From Minisyncoccia bacterium (GTDB taxonomy: Bacteria; Patescibacteriota; Minisyncoccia; JACQLN01): a stretch of 64,000 nt of DNA. The notes below the pieces were generated by a model. The model saw nothing but the letters and a program-made list of their open reading frames with translations. It made no database searches and had not been told where the DNA came from. Positions within the stretch are counted from its first letter, which is position 1. Each line of letters begins with the position of its first letter. A program made the translations under genes and the position numbers. Location of the stretch: contig JBASTM010000005.1 of assembly GCA_049274895.1 (NCBI GenBank), positions 9,636-73,635 on the forward strand, in the 5' to 3' direction. Positions 9,879-17,496 of this stretch are shown piece by piece.

Positions 9879-10287
9879 ATATAGAGAAGGTTATTTTGTC
9901 TCCCTCTCGAAGAAGCTCGTATTCTGTCGGCGGATGGCCGTTGAGCGCCATCGCTAATCTGCCCGGCGGATACCGTTTTTGGATTTCGGGATAAGAAGTA
10001 AAAATACTATGTAAAAGAAAAACAAACGGCGCATTTTCACTCATCATAATTTTAATTTTTGTTTGCCCCGTGATTGCTTCCATAACTGGATCAAATTCAA
10101 TAAACACACTGACTGGTTTTAACATTTCTCTATCCATACACATATAATATAGTCTTTTAAGCATCCGGCAAAACAAAATCCCAACAAATTTGGAGCCTGA
10201 CTGCTTAATTGTGGATAACTTTCGGTTAATTTTCGGCATCATAAATGATAAAATTATATTATCATGCCTACTATAACCCCAAAGCAA
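9877..10287 (-). CDS. Hypothetical small protein (136 aa) in the island
   Basis: ORF in AT-rich DNA. The C-terminal half (...ALNGHPPTEYELLREGDKITFSI) looks loosely like a beta-grasp fold, but this is not diagnostic. Confidence 0.35.
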   Translation of the reverse strand: MLWGYSRHDNIILSFMMPKINRKLSTIKQSGSKFVGILFCRMLKRLYYMCMDREMLKPVSVFIEFDPVMEAITGQTKIKIMMSENAPFVFLLHSIFTSYPEIQKRYPPGRLAMALNGHPPTEYELLREGDKITFSI

Positions 10288-11325
10288 AAACAGGTTCTTG
10301 ATTTTACGTCCGCTTTCATAAAAAATGAGGGCTTTGCTCCTTCAATAAACGAGATAAAAAATAATCTAGGGCTCAAATCCGTTGCCACCATACATCAACA
10401 TCTTCAAGCTCTTGAAAAAAAAGGTTACATAAAAAGAGAAAAAAACCAAAAAAGACACCTGGAAATAGTCGCTGAAATACCGCTGGTTATTAAGCCAGAA
10501 AAAATCGCCGACCAGACTAAAAAATACGACGCCTTACCCTTAAACCAAATAATCTGCGGAGACGCTGTAGAAGAATTAAAAAAAATACCCGATAATTCAA
10601 TAGACTTAGTAGTAACCTCGCCTCCTTACGATGAAATTAGAAAATATAATGGCTTTAGTTTTGATCTACACAAAACAGGAATGGAATTATTTAGAATACT
10701 TAAAAATGGCGGGGTGGCAGCTATGGTTATACAGGATCAAACCAAAAGTTTTGCAAAAACCCTGACATCTTTTAGAACAATCGTAGATTGGGTAGACAAT
10801 ATAGGTTTTCGGCTATTTGAAAACGTAATTTATAGGAAATACGGCACTGAAGGAGCGTGGTGGAAACACAGATTTAGAGTGGACCACGAATATATGCCTA
10901 TTTTTATTAAAGGTGAAAGGCCTCAATATTTTAATAAAGAACCATTAAAAGTGCCGTCAAAACATGGTGGAAAAGTGATGACTGGAAGTGGTAATAGAAG
11001 AACGGATGGTAAGACAACAAAAACCGTCACGAGGATCATAAACCAAATGAAGTGCAGAGGAACTATTTGGGATTACTTAAACGCTGGAGATAAAAACCCA
11101 CTAAAAAGAAAACATCCCGCCGTCTTTCCAGATAAAATACCTTTTGATTTTATCCAATGTTTTTGTCCTCCAAACGGTATTGTTTTAGATCCATTCATCG
11201 GCAGCGGATCAACCTCTGTATCAGCTAAAAAATTAAATAGAAACTTTATAGGAATCGATTTATCAAAAGAATACTGTGATTTAGCTCAAAAAAGGTTGGG
11301 TGAGACGCTTATTACGCTTTTATAG
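10264..11325 (+). CDS. DNA methyltransferase (beta-class N6-adenine/N4-cytosine type, SPPY motif) with an N-terminal LexA-like winged-HTH
   Basis: Motif IV (VVTSPPYD) precedes motif I (LDPFIGSGSTSV), which is the beta-class order. The N-terminus (VATIHQHLQALEKKGYIKRE) looks like a wHTH. Confidence 0.8.
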   Translation: MPTITPKQKQVLDFTSAFIKNEGFAPSINEIKNNLGLKSVATIHQHLQALEKKGYIKREKNQKRHLEIVAEIPLVIKPEKIADQTKKYDALPLNQIICGDAVEELKKIPDNSIDLVVTSPPYDEIRKYNGFSFDLHKTGMELFRILKNGGVAAMVIQDQTKSFAKTLTSFRTIVDWVDNIGFRLFENVIYRKYGTEGAWWKHRFRVDHEYMPIFIKGERPQYFNKEPLKVPSKHGGKVMTGSGNRRTDGKTTKTVTRIINQMKCRGTIWDYLNAGDKNPLKRKHPAVFPDKIPFDFIQCFCPPNGIVLDPFIGSGSTSVSAKKLNRNFIGIDLSKEYCDLAQKRLGETLITLL

Positions 11326-12342
11326 CTAATATAGCTTGTCTGGTTTTTCCAATGTATATTCAATATTTTGACCAGTTGTCATTGCCCAAGTAAGTGGTTT
11401 CTTAGACATTAGTTCCTCAAAGTTTTTATTATTCAAACTGATTCTGCTACCAGCAAAATCGCCCTTAGTAAATTTATACAAAACTAAGTCTGACCAACTC
11501 CATAGATCTTCAATATACTGCCAATCGGTAAGCGTAGATAACAGCTCAATAAATTTTTCCGATCTTTCTTTTGCTTCTGGCTTAATATCATAAAAAGAAC
11601 CACGCTTTATAATATTTGTCGGGTAACCATCCGTTTCTGATATTCTCAATCTGTCCCCTCTTTCACCTGCAACACTGATAATATCTCTTTTTTTGAAAAA
11701 ATCGTCCATTGCTTTCATAAGAGAAAAGACACTATATTTTTCATTTTCAAAAATATACTTAAGTGGACTATTGTTTTCATTAGCCATTAGATAATTTAAC
11801 CAATTCAAAACATTTTCCGGATACTTAAATAAAACGTTGAAGGTTCCATCAGTAAAAAGTAAAGGACATATAGCAGACTCGGGTATTATAATCTTCTTGC
11901 TCGAGCCAACTATACCAATCAATAAATGTATTGTAGCTAAAGGATATTTCAGACGAAACTCTCTATAACCATCATAATTCCTTAAATTATTGGGCTGGAT
12001 ACAGTTTTTATAGTTATCCCAGTTTATCGGTTTCTTATTCTTATTATATTGAACCATGTGATGGCCAACACTTCTTATTTCTTTCCTAAAGACCTCCATA
12101 TCTAAAAACACACAATCACTAGCGGAAACATTCTTTTTTAACAACATCACTTTACCATCGTAAAAACCTTTTATTTTCCATCCTAAAAAATTACTCATAA
12201 ATAACCCACAGAGTAAACCATCACTATCTGGACTCAGAATACAATTATGATCATCCTCAATAATCCAAGGAAAATTTTTTATAATCTCTTTGTAATCAAT
12301 TTGCTCTGATTTATTCTCTAACAACTCCTGTATTTTTGACAT
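11326..12342 (-). CDS. Hypothetical protein (338 aa), convergent with the methyltransferase. It is a candidate restriction endonuclease or defense effector by position only.
   Basis: Large AT-rich ORF with no recognisable motifs; the only evidence is genomic context next to the MTase. Confidence 0.35.
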   Translation of the reverse strand: MSKIQELLENKSEQIDYKEIIKNFPWIIEDDHNCILSPDSDGLLCGLFMSNFLGWKIKGFYDGKVMLLKKNVSASDCVFLDMEVFRKEIRSVGHHMVQYNKNKKPINWDNYKNCIQPNNLRNYDGYREFRLKYPLATIHLLIGIVGSSKKIIIPESAICPLLFTDGTFNVLFKYPENVLNWLNYLMANENNSPLKYIFENEKYSVFSLMKAMDDFFKKRDIISVAGERGDRLRISETDGYPTNIIKRGSFYDIKPEAKERSEKFIELLSTLTDWQYIEDLWSWSDLVLYKFTKGDFAGSRISLNNKNFEELMSKKPLTWAMTTGQNIEYTLEKPDKLY

Positions 12343-12348
12343 ATCGCT

Positions 12349-15300
12349 CTAGACCTTTTTAATCCCCACACCGATTTCGTAGCCGGAATGATTCCAGGTT
12401 TTGTGGACCAGAAAATTGTCGTTCTCGGCAATACCAAAATGGATTTGACTGGAACGGGTTTCGGATTTGATAACCTGCTCCCAACGGGAAAGAAACTCTT
12501 GAAAGTTCTGGTTTTGGCGGATGTCGTAATACAAAATTATTTTATCTTCGGGCGTTAAGCCGGCCTCTTTGCGCATATCGTTGATGTTGCGCGTCAGTTC
12601 GCGCACCAAACCCTCTTCTTTCAGCTCGGCGGTGAGTTCGGTATCCAGAACCACTGTGTCTTTGGCTATTTTGCGGTCGGCCAGAACTTTTTTAACATTC
12701 AATTCCGAAGCCACCAAATACAAAACGTCCCCAATCAAATTGTAATCCGCAGGTGAAAGATATAAGGCGTTTAAGGGCTGGCGGACTCTGATGCCGGTTC
12801 TAGCCCGCTCGGCCAGGCCCAAAGCCACAAGTTCGCGGGCTTTATCCATCACCCGCATTATTTCCGATTTCTTAGCCGACTTTGACGCCTTGGGCCAACT
12901 CTCCAAATGAACAGATTCTAAGTTACAAGTTACAGGTTTTAAGTTCTTGAGATTTTGATAAAGCCATTCGGCCAAAAACGGCGTGAACGGTGAGAGTAAA
13001 ATCGAGACACGTCTTAAAACCTCCGCCAAGGTTCGTTGGGCGGCCAGTTTTTCTCCGTCCATATTTTGTTTTTGAAACTTGCGTCTGGACCTGCGGATAT
13101 ACCAATTGGAAAGTTCATCCACAAATTCCTCAATGTCCCGCGCGGCCGAAGTTACACTGTAAGCATCAAGATGCTTAGCCGCGTCTGATTCCAAATCTGC
13201 CAAGCGCTCCAAAATCCAGCTGTCTAAAATATCCGGCCGGGCGGCCAGCGAGGCCGGAGCGTCGTCATAATAAGTTTCCAAAAAGAGATAGGAGTTAACT
13301 AGAGTATCAACAAAGCGGCGTTTTTTGGTCTCAAGGTCGCGCAGATTAAAAAGTTTGTTGTCGCCGGGCGTGTTTACGGTATAAAAATACCAGCGCATCA
13401 CGTCAAAACCGACTTTCTCGCCTACCAGCCACGGATCCACCATGTTGCCTTTAGATTTAGACATCTTTTCACCCTTATCATCCAGAACATGGTTTAAGCT
13501 GATGACATTCTTAAAAGGCGCGCCTTGGCCCAAGGCGGTAGCTACAGCCACAAGCGTGTAAAACCAGCCGCGGGTTTGATCTATAGCTTCACAAATGTAA
13601 TCCGCCGGGAAAAGATTTTTGGAAGCCCAGGGCATCGCTCCCGAATCAAACCAGACATCTATAAGATCCTTGACGCGCTCCATCCTGGACGAACATTGGG
13701 GACACTTGAGAAAAACAGCATCCACATACGGCCGATGTAGATCAAGATTGCCTTCAGCATCGTAAGGCCAGTTGTTGATTTTGAACTCGGTAAATTCGGC
13801 CGTGTCCAAAACCAGTTTGGATTTTTTCACGGCCGATTGGTAAGCGAGTTCAGTTTCGTCAGAACCGTATATCCCGCCCGAAGTTTGGATCAAAAACAAA
13901 GGGTCCATATGGCTAACCACGATAATTTTTTTACCCGGATGCTTATGGGAAACATCGGCCGTAAAATCACGCACCCTGCGGGCCACGTCCAACCACGACT
14001 CCCCCTGCGGCGGTGAGTGCACAAATCTGTCTTTGAAAGAACTGAAATAGTTACGGTAGGCCTCAACCGCTTGTCCGCTAAACTGACCGGTGTCTATTTC
14101 GCGCAAGCGCGGATCAAAAATTATGTTTTTTGTTTTAAGCTCATCAGCCACAATCTGCGCCGTCTCCCGGGCGCGCAGCAGGTCCGATGAATACACCGCC
14201 GTTGCTTTCTCTTTACCCAGACCCAACTTAATTTTCTTGGCTGCCGCTTCAACCTGCTTGCGGCCGCGCTCGGTCAGCGGATTCAATTTCTGTTCGGGAT
14301 AAGAACTGCAAAAACCTTTAAGATTGGACTCGGCCTCGCCGTGGCGCATTAAAATCAAAGTGGCCGGCGCATCGGTGCGGTTTTTATTCAAATCGTCCAA
14401 CGATCCAGCCACCAACCGGTGATCACATTTCCGGCATTCCCAAACCGGCAAGGGCGTGCCCCAGTAACGCTCGCGGCTGACGGCCCAATCTTTTACCTCG
14501 CGCAGCCACTCACCAAACCGGCCTTCTTTTAAGTGTTCCGGCACCCAATTTATTTTCTGATTATTTTTAATAAGCTCACGCCTTAAAGCCGACATTTTTA
14601 TAAACCAGCTCTCCTTGGCGTAATAAATTAAGGGCGATTGGCAACGCCAACAGAAAGGGTATTCGTGGCTGTAATCGGCTTCGTTAAAAAGCAAATTCTG
14701 TTTTTTTAAGTAAAATAGAATCGCTTTTTCCGTTAGCATGTCTTTCCGGCCCTCGCTGACAACAGGCAAACCGGCCACGATGGGAACTGATTTTATAAAC
14801 ACACCTTCGCGATCCACGGTGTGAAACTTAGGCAAACCGTGCCGCGCACCCAATTCAAAATCATCCGCGCCGTACATTACCGCGGTGTGGACTAGGCCCG
14901 TGCCTTCTTGGGTGCTTACAAAATCGGCGGGATAGACCTTATAAGATTGTGGCGACACCAACTCTTTGATCTTAAAAAGTGGTTCATACGACAACTTAGC
15001 CACTTCACTGGCTTTTAGATCTTTGATAATTTTGTAATCGCGATTGCCAAAAACTTTAGCCGCCAAATCTTTGGCTAAAATATATTTCTCGCCGTCCGAT
15101 TCCACCTCTACATAGTTGATTTTGGAGCCGACGGCCAAAGCCACGTTGCCCGGCAAAGTCCAGGGCGTGGTCGTCCAGGCCAAAAGATAAGTATCGGCTA
15201 AGCCCTTGACTTTGAACTTTACGGTAACTGATTTGTCGGTGACGGTTTCGTAGCCCTGAGCCACTTCGTGGCTGGAAATGGGCGTGCCACAGCGCACGCA

Positions 15301-15828
15301 AAAAGGCACAATTTTGTAATCTTTGACCAAAAGTTTCTTGTCCCAAAATTTTTTAATGATGCTCCAAACGCTTTCAATATACTGCGGTTCGTAGGTGATG
15401 TAGGGGTTTTTGAGATCCAGCCAAAAACCCATCCGGCGCGTCAGTTTTTCCCATTCGTCTTTATACTGCCACACTGATTTCCGGCATGCCTCGTTAAACT
15501 TGGCGATGCCGTATTTTTCTACTTCTTTTTTGTTCTTGAGACCCAACTTTTTCTCCACCTCAATTTCCACCGGCAGGCCGTGGGTATCCCAGCCGGCCCG
15601 GCGCGCCACGTAATACCCCTTCATGGTTTGATAACGGCAGATAATGTCCTTAAAAGCTCGCGCCAAAACATGGTGGATGCCGGGCCGGCCGTTAGCTGTG
15701 GGCGGGCCTTCGTAAAACACAAAAGCATGGCCTTTGGCTGTGGCCGCCAAAGACTTTTCAAAAATATCATTATCCTCCCAAAACTTGAGAGTTTTTTCTT
15801 CTTCTTTGATTAAATCAACCTGGCGCAT
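12349..15828 (-). CDS. ileS: Isoleucine--tRNA ligase with an inserted histidine-phosphatase (PGAM-like) domain
   Basis: HIGH-region PPTANGRPGIHHVLARAFKD, WAVSRERYWGTPLP, and KMSKS (KMSKSKGN). It also carries an internal ~200-aa segment with LILMRHGEAESN...LTERGRKQ...VVSHMDP motifs, which is foreign to IleRS. Confidence 0.9.
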   Translation of the reverse strand: MRQVDLIKEEEKTLKFWEDNDIFEKSLAATAKGHAFVFYEGPPTANGRPGIHHVLARAFKDIICRYQTMKGYYVARRAGWDTHGLPVEIEVEKKLGLKNKKEVEKYGIAKFNEACRKSVWQYKDEWEKLTRRMGFWLDLKNPYITYEPQYIESVWSIIKKFWDKKLLVKDYKIVPFCVRCGTPISSHEVAQGYETVTDKSVTVKFKVKGLADTYLLAWTTTPWTLPGNVALAVGSKINYVEVESDGEKYILAKDLAAKVFGNRDYKIIKDLKASEVAKLSYEPLFKIKELVSPQSYKVYPADFVSTQEGTGLVHTAVMYGADDFELGARHGLPKFHTVDREGVFIKSVPIVAGLPVVSEGRKDMLTEKAILFYLKKQNLLFNEADYSHEYPFCWRCQSPLIYYAKESWFIKMSALRRELIKNNQKINWVPEHLKEGRFGEWLREVKDWAVSRERYWGTPLPVWECRKCDHRLVAGSLDDLNKNRTDAPATLILMRHGEAESNLKGFCSSYPEQKLNPLTERGRKQVEAAAKKIKLGLGKEKATAVYSSDLLRARETAQIVADELKTKNIIFDPRLREIDTGQFSGQAVEAYRNYFSSFKDRFVHSPPQGESWLDVARRVRDFTADVSHKHPGKKIIVVSHMDPLFLIQTSGGIYGSDETELAYQSAVKKSKLVLDTAEFTEFKINNWPYDAEGNLDLHRPYVDAVFLKCPQCSSRMERVKDLIDVWFDSGAMPWASKNLFPADYICEAIDQTRGWFYTLVAVATALGQGAPFKNVISLNHVLDDKGEKMSKSKGNMVDPWLVGEKVGFDVMRWYFYTVNTPGDNKLFNLRDLETKKRRFVDTLVNSYLFLETYYDDAPASLAARPDILDSWILERLADLESDAAKHLDAYSVTSAARDIEEFVDELSNWYIRRSRRKFQKQNMDGEKLAAQRTLAEVLRRVSILLSPFTPFLAEWLYQNLKNLKPVTCNLESVHLESWPKASKSAKKSEIMRVMDKARELVALGLAERARTGIRVRQPLNALYLSPADYNLIGDVLYLVASELNVKKVLADRKIAKDTVVLDTELTAELKEEGLVRELTRNINDMRKEAGLTPEDKIILYYDIRQNQNFQEFLSRWEQVIKSETRSSQIHFGIAENDNFLVHKTWNHSGYEIGVGIKKV
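12359..12402. repeat. 44-bp direct repeat, copy 2, lying inside the 3-prime end of ileS
   Basis: Identical to 9835-9878. On the minus strand it encodes ...KTWNHSGYEIGVGIK of IleRS. Confidence 0.9.
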
Positions 15829-16105
15829 GAGATAAGCTTAGCCAAACCGTGCTTATAAATCAACCAAAAACCATTTAATATATTTTTATGTTTCCACGAC
15901 CTTATTAAGAGAGGTCGGTTGCTCCACATCAACAAAATCATGTAACTACTAAGCGGTTACAATGCGGTCAATAATCCACTTTTTAATATCGTCTAAAACA
16001 ATACCTCTATCCGATCGCCTGTGGTATCAAAAAGCGCCACCGCTAAACGGTGGCACATATTTTTCATCAACTCTAAATCTAAATAGTTAAACTTCATAAT
16101 ACAAA

Positions 16106-16327
16106 CTATGTCCGGTCGTATTCAGCCAGTTTCTCAAAAACTTCCTTATACTCTTTTACAGCCCGTTTAGTACCTTCTTCAACTTTCATTTTCAGCTCCT
16201 CTCTTGAATCAGAAACCTGTTCCTTTACTGTCTTTTCATCAGTTTCTTTGCCGTTAATTTTTAGCAATTTCTTGATAAATTTAGTCATATTTTGATTATA
16301 GCACTTAAGACACTGGTATTCTAACAA
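16106..16327 (-). CDS. Hypothetical small charged protein
   Basis: ORF only; it is followed on the minus strand by the hairpin gccaccg...cggtggc plus a T-run. Confidence 0.3.
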   Translation of the reverse strand: MLEYQCLKCYNQNMTKFIKKLLKINGKETDEKTVKEQVSDSREELKMKVEEGTKRAVKEYKEVFEKLAEYDRT

Positions 16328-16509
16328 ACAAACATACTAACCTTATTCCAGTTCTAAATCAAAACCCCGCTTGCCGAAGGCGGGGGTTCTCAATAATTTT
16401 AGTGATTATCTTTCCTATATTCCTTGGGAAATCTCCAAATTAGCAAATCGCTTTCGTTGTTTAATAAACAAAAAGTGCCCTTTGCCCACAGCCGTGATAA
16501 ACTTACAAT

Positions 16510-16953
16510 ATGGAAGCTAAAATCAACAAAAAGGCGTTTTTTAATTATGAAATCCTGGAGAAGTTCGAGGCCGGTTTAGTGCTGCTTGGTTCGGAGGTTA
16601 AATCCATAAAAAACAGCCATTACAGTTTGCAGGGCGCTTACGTGACCCTCCAAAACGAAGAGGCCTGGCTGGTGCGCGCCACCATCGCCCCCTACCAACC
16701 CAAAAATATGAATACGGCTTATAACCCCGAACGGCCGAGAAAGCTGTTGTTAAATAAAAAGGAACTTAAATACCTCCAAGGCAAAACCAAAGAACGGGGG
16801 TTGACTATTGTGCCGTTAAAAGTCTATAATAAGCACGGTCAAATAAAATTGGAAATCGGTTTGGCCAAAGGCAAAACCAAGTCAGATAAACGGGAAGTTC
16901 TTAAAAAACGCATTGCCGATCGAGAGATCCAAAGAGAAATAAGAAATAAATAG
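16510..16953 (+). CDS. smpB: SsrA-binding protein SmpB
   Basis: N-terminal NKKAFFNYEILEKFEAGLVLLGSEVKSIK and a basic C-terminal tail typical of SmpB. Confidence 0.9.
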   Translation: MEAKINKKAFFNYEILEKFEAGLVLLGSEVKSIKNSHYSLQGAYVTLQNEEAWLVRATIAPYQPKNMNTAYNPERPRKLLLNKKELKYLQGKTKERGLTIVPLKVYNKHGQIKLEIGLAKGKTKSDKREVLKKRIADREIQREIRNK

Positions 16954-17039: not shown

Positions 17040-17397
17040 GGGGATGTAACGGCTTCGTCAAGAAGCGTATTGCTTTGGATTCGAGGTTGAGGTTGACCAC
17101 AAACTCATAAAACTGGTCGAAAACAATAAGTGCAAACTTATTTAACGCTAAACCAGCGTTTGCTGTAGCTTAAAAACTTCAGCCATCGTTCCGTCCCCGC
17201 CCGAAGGGATGGAAACGGTGCCAACTTTTCGGGCCGCTCTTTCAAACCAGGCGGGTTTGGAAGCTAAGACAATCGCCGAAAGTTCAACTTTTTTGGCCGT
17301 CCTTTAAGGGTTGGACTTAAAACAAGGGCGGTTAGACTTCGTAAAAATCCTGGCAAGAAACTTTTTGCACGCGGGTTCAACTCCCGCCATCTCCACC
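17040..17397 (+). ncRNA. ssrA: tmRNA (ssrA), with predicted tag peptide ANLFNAKPAFAVA
   Basis: The 5-prime end GGGGATG...GGATTCGAGG and the 3-prime tRNA-like end GCGGGTTCAACTCCCGCCATCTCCACC are complementary across an acceptor stem. There is an internal frame gca aac tta ttt aac gct aaa cca gcg ttt gct gta gct taa. The gene sits immediately downstream of smpB. Confidence 0.8.
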
Positions 17398-17496
17398 CCG
17401 TAAAGCAAAATATGCAGCATATTTTGCCACGGGGTAGGCACGTGATAAAATTTGAAAAATTTTTCAAATTTTATTTTACGTGCCACCTCGTAAAAC

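Follow-up and report, generated by a model that had tools for sequence, protein, structure and literature searches.

The window analyzed here, a stretch of 64,000 nucleotides from contig JBASTM010000005.1 of a Minisyncoccia bacterium (assembly GCA_049274895.1), contains the gene ileS for an isoleucyl-tRNA synthetase (IleRS) whose catalytic body hosts a complete histidine phosphatase domain of the branch-1 type. We are highly confident, for these three points taken jointly, that the guest is a complete branch-1 histidine phosphatase, that its catalytic set is intact, and that it is related to a gene encoded free-standing in sister lineages. A first-pass annotation of the same DNA had placed such a domain in the synthetase ahead of the DVWFDSGAMP/KMSKS region, following a conserved segment; profile searches, the full-length fold, and the catalytic residues of 118 relatives bore this out, and the motifs it had quoted, including DVWFDSGAMP, are all found in the places claimed. 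Both domains, the nesting of accessory modules in class Ia synthetases, and the sequences themselves (which are public) are already known. This guest domain, together with the comparative evidence for a recurrent partnership of IleRS and phosphatase across the ultra-small bacteria of the Candidate Phyla Radiation (CPR), appears not to have been described before. No description of the architecture was found in the literature on histidine phosphatases or insertions in IleRS, in aminoacyl-tRNA synthetases, or in CPR bacteria, nor in a 2026 preprint on the domain evolution of IleRS.

The gene is one open reading frame (ORF) of 1159 codons without interruption, which confirmed the protein length given previously. 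Its parts, and the two halves of the zinc knuckle surrounding the insert, are as follows (all on the minus strand).

12349..15828, minus strand: ileS, type-2 isoleucyl-tRNA synthetase of 1159 amino acids with an internal phosphatase domain (ORF, TIGR00392, match to 8c8w, AlphaFold2 model)
14377..15828, minus strand: N-terminal IleRS part, residues 1-484, comprising the first Rossmann half, the editing domain CP1, and the opening half of the second zinc knuckle (counterpart of 8c8w residues 13-478)
14425..14436, minus strand: CRKC, residues 465-468 (C465, C468), first half of the insert-hosting zinc knuckle (invariant in the alignment)
13756..14376, minus strand: inserted branch-1 histidine phosphatase domain, residues 485-691 (PF00300; bounds from the 8c8w alignment)
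13693..13704, minus strand: CPQC, residues 709-712 (C709, C712), second half of this knuckle, C-terminal to the insert (invariant in the alignment)
12349..13755, minus strand: C-terminal IleRS part, residues 692-1159, with DVWFDSG, DQTRGWFY, KMSKS, the anticodon-binding domain, and DUF5915 (counterpart of 8c8w residues 483-864; Pfam)

When aligned to the IleRS2 of Priestia megaterium (8c8w; phmmer against PDB sequences), residues 9-484 of the query correspond to residues 13-478 of the solved protein and residues 692-1062 to residues 483-864. Because the alignment breaks at 484/692, the insert is delimited at residues 485-691, that is, ∼207 residues in place of ∼4. The earlier estimate of ∼200 extra residues at 13759-14367 was therefore essentially right (the alignment gives 13756-14376), and so was the statement that an ordinary IleRS carries only a short linker at this point. 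As the insert is flanked by CRKC and CPQC, all four cysteines of which are retained without exception in the relatives, the phosphatase is nested in the loop that joins the halves of the second Cys4 knuckle, within the second half of the Rossmann fold. A known IleRS-specific insertion without similarity to phosphatases was ruled out, as solved IleRS2 structures have only the ∼4 residues there. The composition of the insert does not differ from that of the rest of the gene (guanine-cytosine [GC] content of 0.50 versus 0.48; GC content at third codon positions [GC3] of 0.57 versus 0.53-0.56), and this uniformity, together with the ancient, vertically conserved architecture, excluded a foreign or mobile insert. 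NCBI holds an identical protein under the name [quoted passage not shown], and independent assemblies with proteins 47-86% identical show the same architecture.

The similarity of the insert to Pfam family His_Phos_1 (PF00300), which had been proposed from its motifs, was confirmed at residues 491-644 (E = 2.4e-34; 119.2 bits versus a gathering cut-off of 21.7). Conservation was read from an alignment of 118 full-length homologues that are 47-100% identical to the query. The catalytic histidines, arginines, and glutamate are intact.

14338..14346, minus strand: RHG motif with R495 and H496, the latter the predicted phospho-accepting nucleophile (R495 and H496 in 118/118, G497 in 114/118)
14173..14175, minus strand: R552, second arginine of the phosphate pocket, in the motif SSDLLRA (118/118)
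14098..14100, minus strand: E577, predicted proton donor, in the motif RLREID (E in 105/118, D in 13/118)
13909..13911, minus strand: H640, second catalytic histidine, in the motif VVSHMD (118/118)

Further residues of the family, S548, G522, E610, and R618, are likewise invariant in the 118 homologues; the equivalents of E610 and R618 are glutamine in a single tandem copy (copy 1 of P0246, see below). The mean identity to the query is 40% for the insert and 57% for the host, that is, the insert diverges faster, and the fact that the catalytic residues are nevertheless kept indicates that their conservation is selective. Thus, a chance match of the motifs was rejected on account of profile score, fold, and conservation.

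The AlphaFold2 (AF2) model of the insert alone reached a predicted local distance difference test score (pLDDT) of 91.4. In this model, the alpha/beta fold of branch 1 is complete and extends through the portion that follows the second histidine; in Foldseek, the model covers the whole 207-residue PspA (4ij6) and PhoE (1h2e) over 203-204 columns with template modeling (TM) scores of ∼0.75 (0.73-0.77), and CobC and GpgP likewise over ∼203 columns (TM ∼0.75). When a profile of 28 inserts was compared with the PDB, the best solved relatives were PhoE (1ebb/1h2e; 1.3e-30), the phosphoserine phosphatase PspA (4ij5; 2.7e-30), and CobC. The solved cofactor-dependent phosphoglycerate mutases (dPGM) are longer and fit the model less well (target-normalized TM 0.58-0.67). 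Scores against the curated subfamily models all remained below the respective cut-offs, for the mutases (dPGM_arch, NF038349, 88.5 bits versus 225; PRK01295, 44 versus 316) as well as for CobC (TIGR03162, 81.1 versus 162.9), for PspA (NF045917, 79.1 versus 350), although PspA is the best fold match, and for the RNase H/acid phosphatase (NF005567, 92 versus 326), the best-scoring histidine phosphatase model of NCBIfam. Subfamily scores and fold matches thus point to a phosphatase-type rather than a mutase-type member of the superfamily. The label “PGAM-like” used previously holds at the level of the superfamily; it does not hold further down, where the insert is below the dPGM, PspA, and CobC cut-offs and resembles the short phosphatases, not the mutases. 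Identity as a dPGM was ruled out by the subthreshold scores, by the weaker fit of the solved dPGMs, which are longer, and by a gene for the cofactor-independent mutase (iPGM), which one genome with the embedded form encodes nearby.

The host of this domain is, as far as its residues can tell, a complete type-2 IleRS, competent in editing and with both zinc sites and KMSKS intact. The NCBIfam equivalog model for ileS (TIGR00392) recognizes it with 851.5 bits (cut-off 621.4) in two stretches split by the insert, and Pfam finds tRNA-synt_1 (E = 6.6e-109, in two halves), Anticodon_1, and DUF5915 in the 1159-residue protein, with His_Phos_1 separating the halves of tRNA-synt_1. Among PDB sequences, phmmer ranked IleRS2 8c8w first (E = 5.8e-237). 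The AF2 model of the full-length protein, for which 60 sequences were used, is confident along its whole length (pLDDT 88.1; predicted TM score 0.78), both junctions of the insert included. Cysteines C177, C180, C393, and C396 of the first zinc site are present, and the editing motifs of CP1 (T219-T221/W223/T224, G309-T310-G311/V313/H314, and D323) are invariant in 60 homologues; structures of isolated editing domains (1wk8 and 1ue0) match query residues 192-391. The two class-I signatures are located as follows (coordinates verified by translation).

15670..15681, minus strand: GIHH, residues 50-53, a non-canonical class-I signature (GXHH replacing HXGH)
13453-13467, minus strand: KMSKS, residues 788-792

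Residues G50, H52, and H53 of the former do not vary among 60 homologues from Parcubacteria. With GIHH on an IleRS2 backbone, the protein belongs to the GXHH-type IleRS2 class, and its best PDB match, 8c8w, is itself the GVHH mutant of the P. megaterium enzyme (PmIleRS2). A GXHH signature is reported to be tolerated only by IleRS2 and to confer hyper-resistance to mupirocin (Brkic et al., PMC10485003). As GIHH is invariant in the clade, all GIHH-bearing Parcubacteria may therefore be intrinsically resistant to mupirocin.

All 120 of the best full-length matches to the protein (1116-1249 amino acids) carry PF00300, and their source names comprise Parcubacteria, Sungbacteria, Azambacteria, Jorgensenbacteria, Nealsonbacteria, Brennerbacteria, Yanofskybacteria, and Pacebacteria; among the fragment matches, Magasanikbacteria were also named, and one was named Nanoarchaeota. 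Judged from these sequences, the phosphatase-bearing IleRS is the norm in the Parcubacteria/Paceibacteria clade. The assessment of the architecture as highly unusual is thus valid relative to characterized synthetases, but among Parcubacteria this form of IleRS is the standard one, and the protein is already public. A profile search of 1.84 billion cluster representatives returned 758 proteins at E ≤ 1e-30. Among the top 150 of these, 93 proteins longer than 230 residues match the IleRS backbone, 49 are of 230 residues or less, and 8 have other architectures; 46 of the 49 short, free proteins begin with methionine, and E values reach down to 1e-65.

Free homologues of ∼190 amino acids came from Staskawiczbacteria and other Parcubacteria. 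They share with the embedded family the motifs SSWPE, SDLLRTKQTAEI, RLREINFG, GESWxDV, and VSHGDPLW. In six loci, the order is argS, the free phosphatase gene, and then an ileS lacking the insert, with the genes overlapping or separated by gaps of about 2-21 bp; in one of them (L006), a single further ORF intervenes. The ileS downstream of the free phosphatase scores as ileS in one unbroken stretch. Conversely, three genomes with the embedded form have smpB, argS, and the insert-containing ileS, and no free gene between argS and ileS. Since the free gene is absent from the syntenic slot exactly where ileS has the insert, the free and the embedded state are, by gene order, complementary at one orthologous locus. 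The embedded guest is the protein for which sister Parcubacteria have a free gene between argS and ileS. In a rough neighbor-joining tree without support values, free and embedded forms of Paceibacteria interleave, and Peribacteria-type copies are basal and grouped by insertion site, which hints at several events of fusion or fission.

Two further observations concern the free-gene loci. The ileS genes occupying the operon slot are of different subtypes (L001:8576-11539 and L005:6573-9491 versus L002:8596-11436, L004:6601-9501, and L006:7298-10231), one of which is characterized by GVHH, EMHKS replacing KMSKS, and GQFKNWFY, the other by HYGH and KMSKKLKNYPDP; the presence of different subtypes in the same slot suggests that ileS was displaced in situ while the phosphatase gene upstream remained. 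Moreover, one Parcubacteria genome has a second His_Phos_1 gene (L006:1-51; 180 amino acids, cut at the end of the locus) ∼6 kb upstream of its argS–phosphatase–ileS cluster, so that some genomes hold more than one member of the family.

Neither the position nor the number of the embedded domains is fixed. Some IleRS proteins of 1379-1468 amino acids contain two phosphatase copies, and partial proteins contain three or four; tandem copies in the region of the zinc knuckle (two, three, or four each) were found in P0241, P0246, P0257, P0281, P0287, and P0341. Every complete copy keeps the R, H, R, E, H set, as do the free homologues. The alignment distinguished at least three insertion points in IleRS.

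Site 1: the zinc knuckle, as in the window; in some proteins the domain is duplicated in tandem here
Site 2: after WFDSGxMP and before PADxIxEGxDQTRGWFY
Site 3: after the stem-contact fold, ahead of the anticodon-binding domain

Domains at sites 2 and 3 occur in IleRS of the Peribacteria/Gracilibacteria type (P0260, P0282, and P0300; L007:8001-12260; L014:3001-7275; L015; L016). In P0257 and P0260, the CxxC cysteines of the insert-hosting zinc knuckle are lost. A phyletic scan of one genome per GTDB species, for which a single Peribacteria-type IleRS protein served as query, returned Candidatus Peribacteria and Gracilibacteria as the nearest relatives; one Peribacteria genome has two phosphatase copies in its IleRS and another has one, and a single copy, at site 3, is present in a Gracilibacteria genome. 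The IleRS proteins that come next in similarity, from Spirochaetia and Sumerlaeota, contain none. In the locus examined for the Peribacteria-type IleRS, which lies on a contig of 1.06 Mb, argS is not adjacent to ileS. The same phosphatase was also found with other partners, at the C-terminus of arginyl-tRNA synthetase (ArgRS; L012:6001-8070), in a locus where ileS is missing from its usual interval between argS and recO, and fused to the threonylcarbamoyl-AMP synthase Sua5/TsaC (L013:977-2140, a short contig).

Taken together, we favor, as somewhat more probable than even, the interpretation that the protein is a bifunctional IleRS–phosphatase in which the phosphatase is functionally coupled to the synthetase and acts on a phosphate in the micro-environment of aminoacylation. 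The conservation of the catalytic residues is observed; how they would work follows from the chemistry of branch-1 enzymes. By this analogy, R495, R552, and H640 would hold a phosphomonoester, H496 would attack it to form a phospho-histidine intermediate, and E577 would protonate the leaving group and then activate water, so that the embedded phosphatase would be active via phospho-His496. Coupling to the synthetase we infer from comparative genomics. The use of at least three loops, tandem arrays of up to four copies, the occurrence in two CPR classes with different IleRS subtypes, and the fusions to ArgRS and TsaC/Sua5 would be explained by selection for tethering to, or co-stoichiometry with, an adenylate-forming, tRNA-related enzyme rather than for precise geometry; as insertion sites vary, the geometry between the two active sites is probably unimportant. 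IleRS, ArgRS, and TsaC have in common that they serve tRNA biology, consume ATP, form adenylates, and release pyrophosphate and AMP. The phosphatase would strip a phosphate from a tRNA 3′ end, where it blocks charging, or from a nucleotide by-product. As to the substrate itself, our guesses are graded: a tRNA end is conceivable without being probable, and the same is true for an unrelated metabolite, a nucleotide is a weaker candidate, and a protein an improbable one. Whether the phosphatase is an integral, CPR-specific component of aminoacylation, which clears tRNA 3′-phosphates or 3′-pyrophosphates left behind by nucleases or toxins or acts on a nucleotide of the synthetase, is a tentative extension of this interpretation that we consider possible but doubtful. 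The free phosphatases (P0385-P0503) have a median isoelectric point (pI) of 9.8 and a net charge of about +15 on ∼190 residues, compared with a pI of 9.1 and a net charge of +5 for the embedded domains, and this basic charge of the free proteins weakly hints at an RNA-related partner.

Several points weigh against a functional coupling. The charge argument is weakened because CPR proteomes are generally basic (the IleRS backbones have a pI of 9.2). The adjacency of argS, the phosphatase gene, and ileS could itself favor fusions between neighbors, so that the fusions within Paceibacteria are not fully independent evidence, and the neighbor-joining tree, which has no support values, can serve only as a hint that several fusion or fission events occurred. 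The varied insertion sites leave no argument for a channeling geometry. Furthermore, the insert scores under the curated cut-offs of every characterized subfamily, and the Peribacteria-type copies are about as similar to it as are generic PhoE-like proteins; they may therefore be separate recruitments with differing function.

The most serious competitor to a coupled enzyme is a housekeeping phosphatase for some unrelated small metabolite, for instance, a phospho-amino acid or a sugar phosphate, which was captured from the neighboring gene in a compact operon, the fusion being neutral or maintained for co-expression. The nearest solved relatives are indeed phosphatases of small molecules (PhoE, PspA, CobC, GpgP, and TIGAR), the free gene overlaps or abuts its neighbors, which makes read-through or local rearrangement easy, the C-terminal fusion to ArgRS resembles exactly such an event, and the diversity of insertion sites speaks against a specific geometry. 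However, simple read-through does not account for internal insertions at three different loops in an essential enzyme, and the domain recurs in Peribacteria and Gracilibacteria in another IleRS subtype and another context, with no argS nearby. Tandem arrays of up to four intact copies are hard to reconcile with neutrality, and the free gene stays upstream of ileS although the ileS subtypes in that slot differ. Within this explanation, a role as phosphoglycerate mutase is unlikely, given the iPGM gene near one of the embedded forms. Overall, capture of an unrelated phosphatase has a real, if minor, chance of being correct.

Substantially less probable is a protein phosphatase akin to PGAM5, Sts-1, or SixA that keeps the synthetase or a partner dephosphorylated, for example, by reversing the action of Hip-type toxin kinases. 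The histidine phosphatase superfamily includes protein phosphatases, fusion to two class-I synthetases, IleRS and ArgRS, would suit a guardian acting in cis, and a flexible protein substrate would be compatible with a tether that imposes no fixed geometry. Yet the neighbors in sequence and fold are small-molecule phosphatases rather than PGAM5, Sts, or SixA, no kinase gene was evident in the free-gene and embedded-form loci examined, and nothing in the analysis indicated that these synthetases are phosphorylated, so that we consider this function unlikely. That the insert is a dead module, structural or RNA-binding, which merely enlarges the synthetase, is very improbable: RNA binding is often served by insertions in synthetases, and the domain evolves faster than its host, but the five catalytic residues are conserved not only in the 118 homologues but also in the free proteins and all tandem copies, and S548, G522, E610, and R618 are also invariant in the 118 homologues (with the glutamine exceptions in P0246 copy 1), which is the signature of retained catalysis. 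Finally, because the source is a metagenome-type genome, a chimeric assembly, frameshift-joined genes, or a mobile, intein-like element that the functioning protein would have lost were considered. The unbroken reading frame, the recurrence of the architecture in over 100 assemblies obtained independently from a variety of sources, GC and GC3 equal to those of the host gene, a standard phosphatase fold devoid of intein or Hint motifs, and an AF2 model confident over both junctions render the probability of such an artifact negligible.

The architecture described places a phosphatase that is catalytically intact, as judged from its residues, within the catalytic body of an essential synthetase, and this holds across a very large, barely understood bacterial radiation. 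The alternation between a free neighboring gene and an embedded domain, the several insertion sites, and the multiple copies amount to a Rosetta-stone signal and thus suggest a functional partnership. Aminoacyl-tRNA synthetases rank with the best-studied enzymes, and extra domains on them have repeatedly revealed new biology, be it editing, signaling, or complex formation. The system therefore offers a testable entry into CPR-specific translation biology and, at the same time, a natural experiment on how well whole-domain insertions are tolerated at different loops. Should the substrate be tRNA or a nucleotide of aminoacylation, the phosphatase would represent a new accessory activity of a synthetase; should it be an integral component of aminoacylation, it would constitute a new layer of tRNA repair or charging control, hard-wired repeatedly into IleRS and occasionally into ArgRS. 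Even if the substrate were an unrelated metabolite, the capture of a domain from an operon neighbor would still be striking.

The conserved block around the gene in the window comprises smpB, ileS with the insert, a variable island of low GC content, recO, a DUF7619-like gene, glyS, and a gene for an M16 peptidase. Neither argS nor a second phosphatase gene was found within the window, and by synteny argS is lost from the position upstream of ileS. There, a 680-bp spacer of low GC content (15829-16509) separates ileS from the divergent smpB, at the spot where argS resides in relatives (L008-L010). The spacer contains a strong, terminator-like hairpin (16034-16056) without a match in Rfam. No regulatory RNA or T-box was detected upstream of ileS, as Rfam reported only the tmRNA and one tRNA over the window, and promoter-like and terminator-like matches were no more common than in shuffled sequence. 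The genes for SmpB, tmRNA (tag peptide ANLFNAKPAFAVA), and InfC follow in this order (16510-16953 and 17040-17398), an ordinary trans-translation cluster that is syntenic with the related loci. Directly downstream of ileS, the island of low GC content (10264-12342; 0.32-0.37 versus ∼0.47 for the window) contains two genes.

10264-11325, plus strand: LexA-type helix-turn-helix domain fused to an N4/N6 DNA methyltransferase
11326-12342, minus strand: convergent ORF of 338 amino acids without a Pfam match

It looks like a restriction-modification or mobile insertion within the otherwise conserved block from ileS to recO.

Among known systems, the host is closest to IleRS2, as solved for P. megaterium (8c8u/8c8w) and Thermus thermophilus (1ile), to which it aligns end to end (E = 5.8e-237 and 1.7e-222, respectively). 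Shared with these are the CP1 editing domain, the two Cys4 zinc sites, KMSKS, and the type-2 C-terminal domains, and the GXHH signature is shared with the hyper-mupirocin-resistant IleRS2; in contrast, the solved enzymes have ∼4 residues where the host has the 207-residue phosphatase. We know of no solved or described IleRS with an enzyme domain at the zinc-knuckle point. A precedent for an IleRS with an additional enzyme domain is ileS_w_GNAT (NF040702), which carries an N-acetyltransferase and forms a separate NCBI class; the host matches this model only via its IleRS parts (287 bits versus a cut-off of 1999), and Pfam finds no acetyltransferase domain in it. The CP1 editing domain, the leucine-specific domain of leucyl-tRNA synthetase (LeuRS), and the INS subdomain of IleRS2 are likewise folded modules nested in surface loops of class Ia synthetases. 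These act, however, on the substrates of aminoacylation (editing, tRNA binding), whereas the guest belongs to a phosphoryl-transfer superfamily that has, to our knowledge, no known role in this process. The INS subdomain is described in a recent preprint (bioRxiv 10.64898/2026.02.03.703510).

The guest itself has the same short branch-1 form of ∼200 residues and the same catalytic set as the broad-specificity phosphatase PhoE of Geobacillus stearothermophilus (1ebb/1h2e), PspA (4ij5), and the alpha-ribazole phosphatase CobC (6nru, 6e4b), and all of them are devoid of the extra segments that make the solved dPGMs ∼30-50 residues longer. Identity to these phosphatases is just 24-27%, and the SSWPE-type loop following the RHG strand is the CPR family's own, from which PhoE, PspA, and CobC differ. 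The latter are free-standing enzymes, whereas the CPR phosphatase is embedded in, or encoded adjoining, a synthetase. In this respect, it resembles the bifunctional RNase H/acid phosphatase (NF005567; of the Mycobacterium Rv2228c type), which likewise combines a CobC/PhoE-like phosphatase with an enzyme acting on nucleic acid; there, however, the phosphatase is fused end to end with RNase HI, whereas in ileS it is inserted internally into the synthetase.

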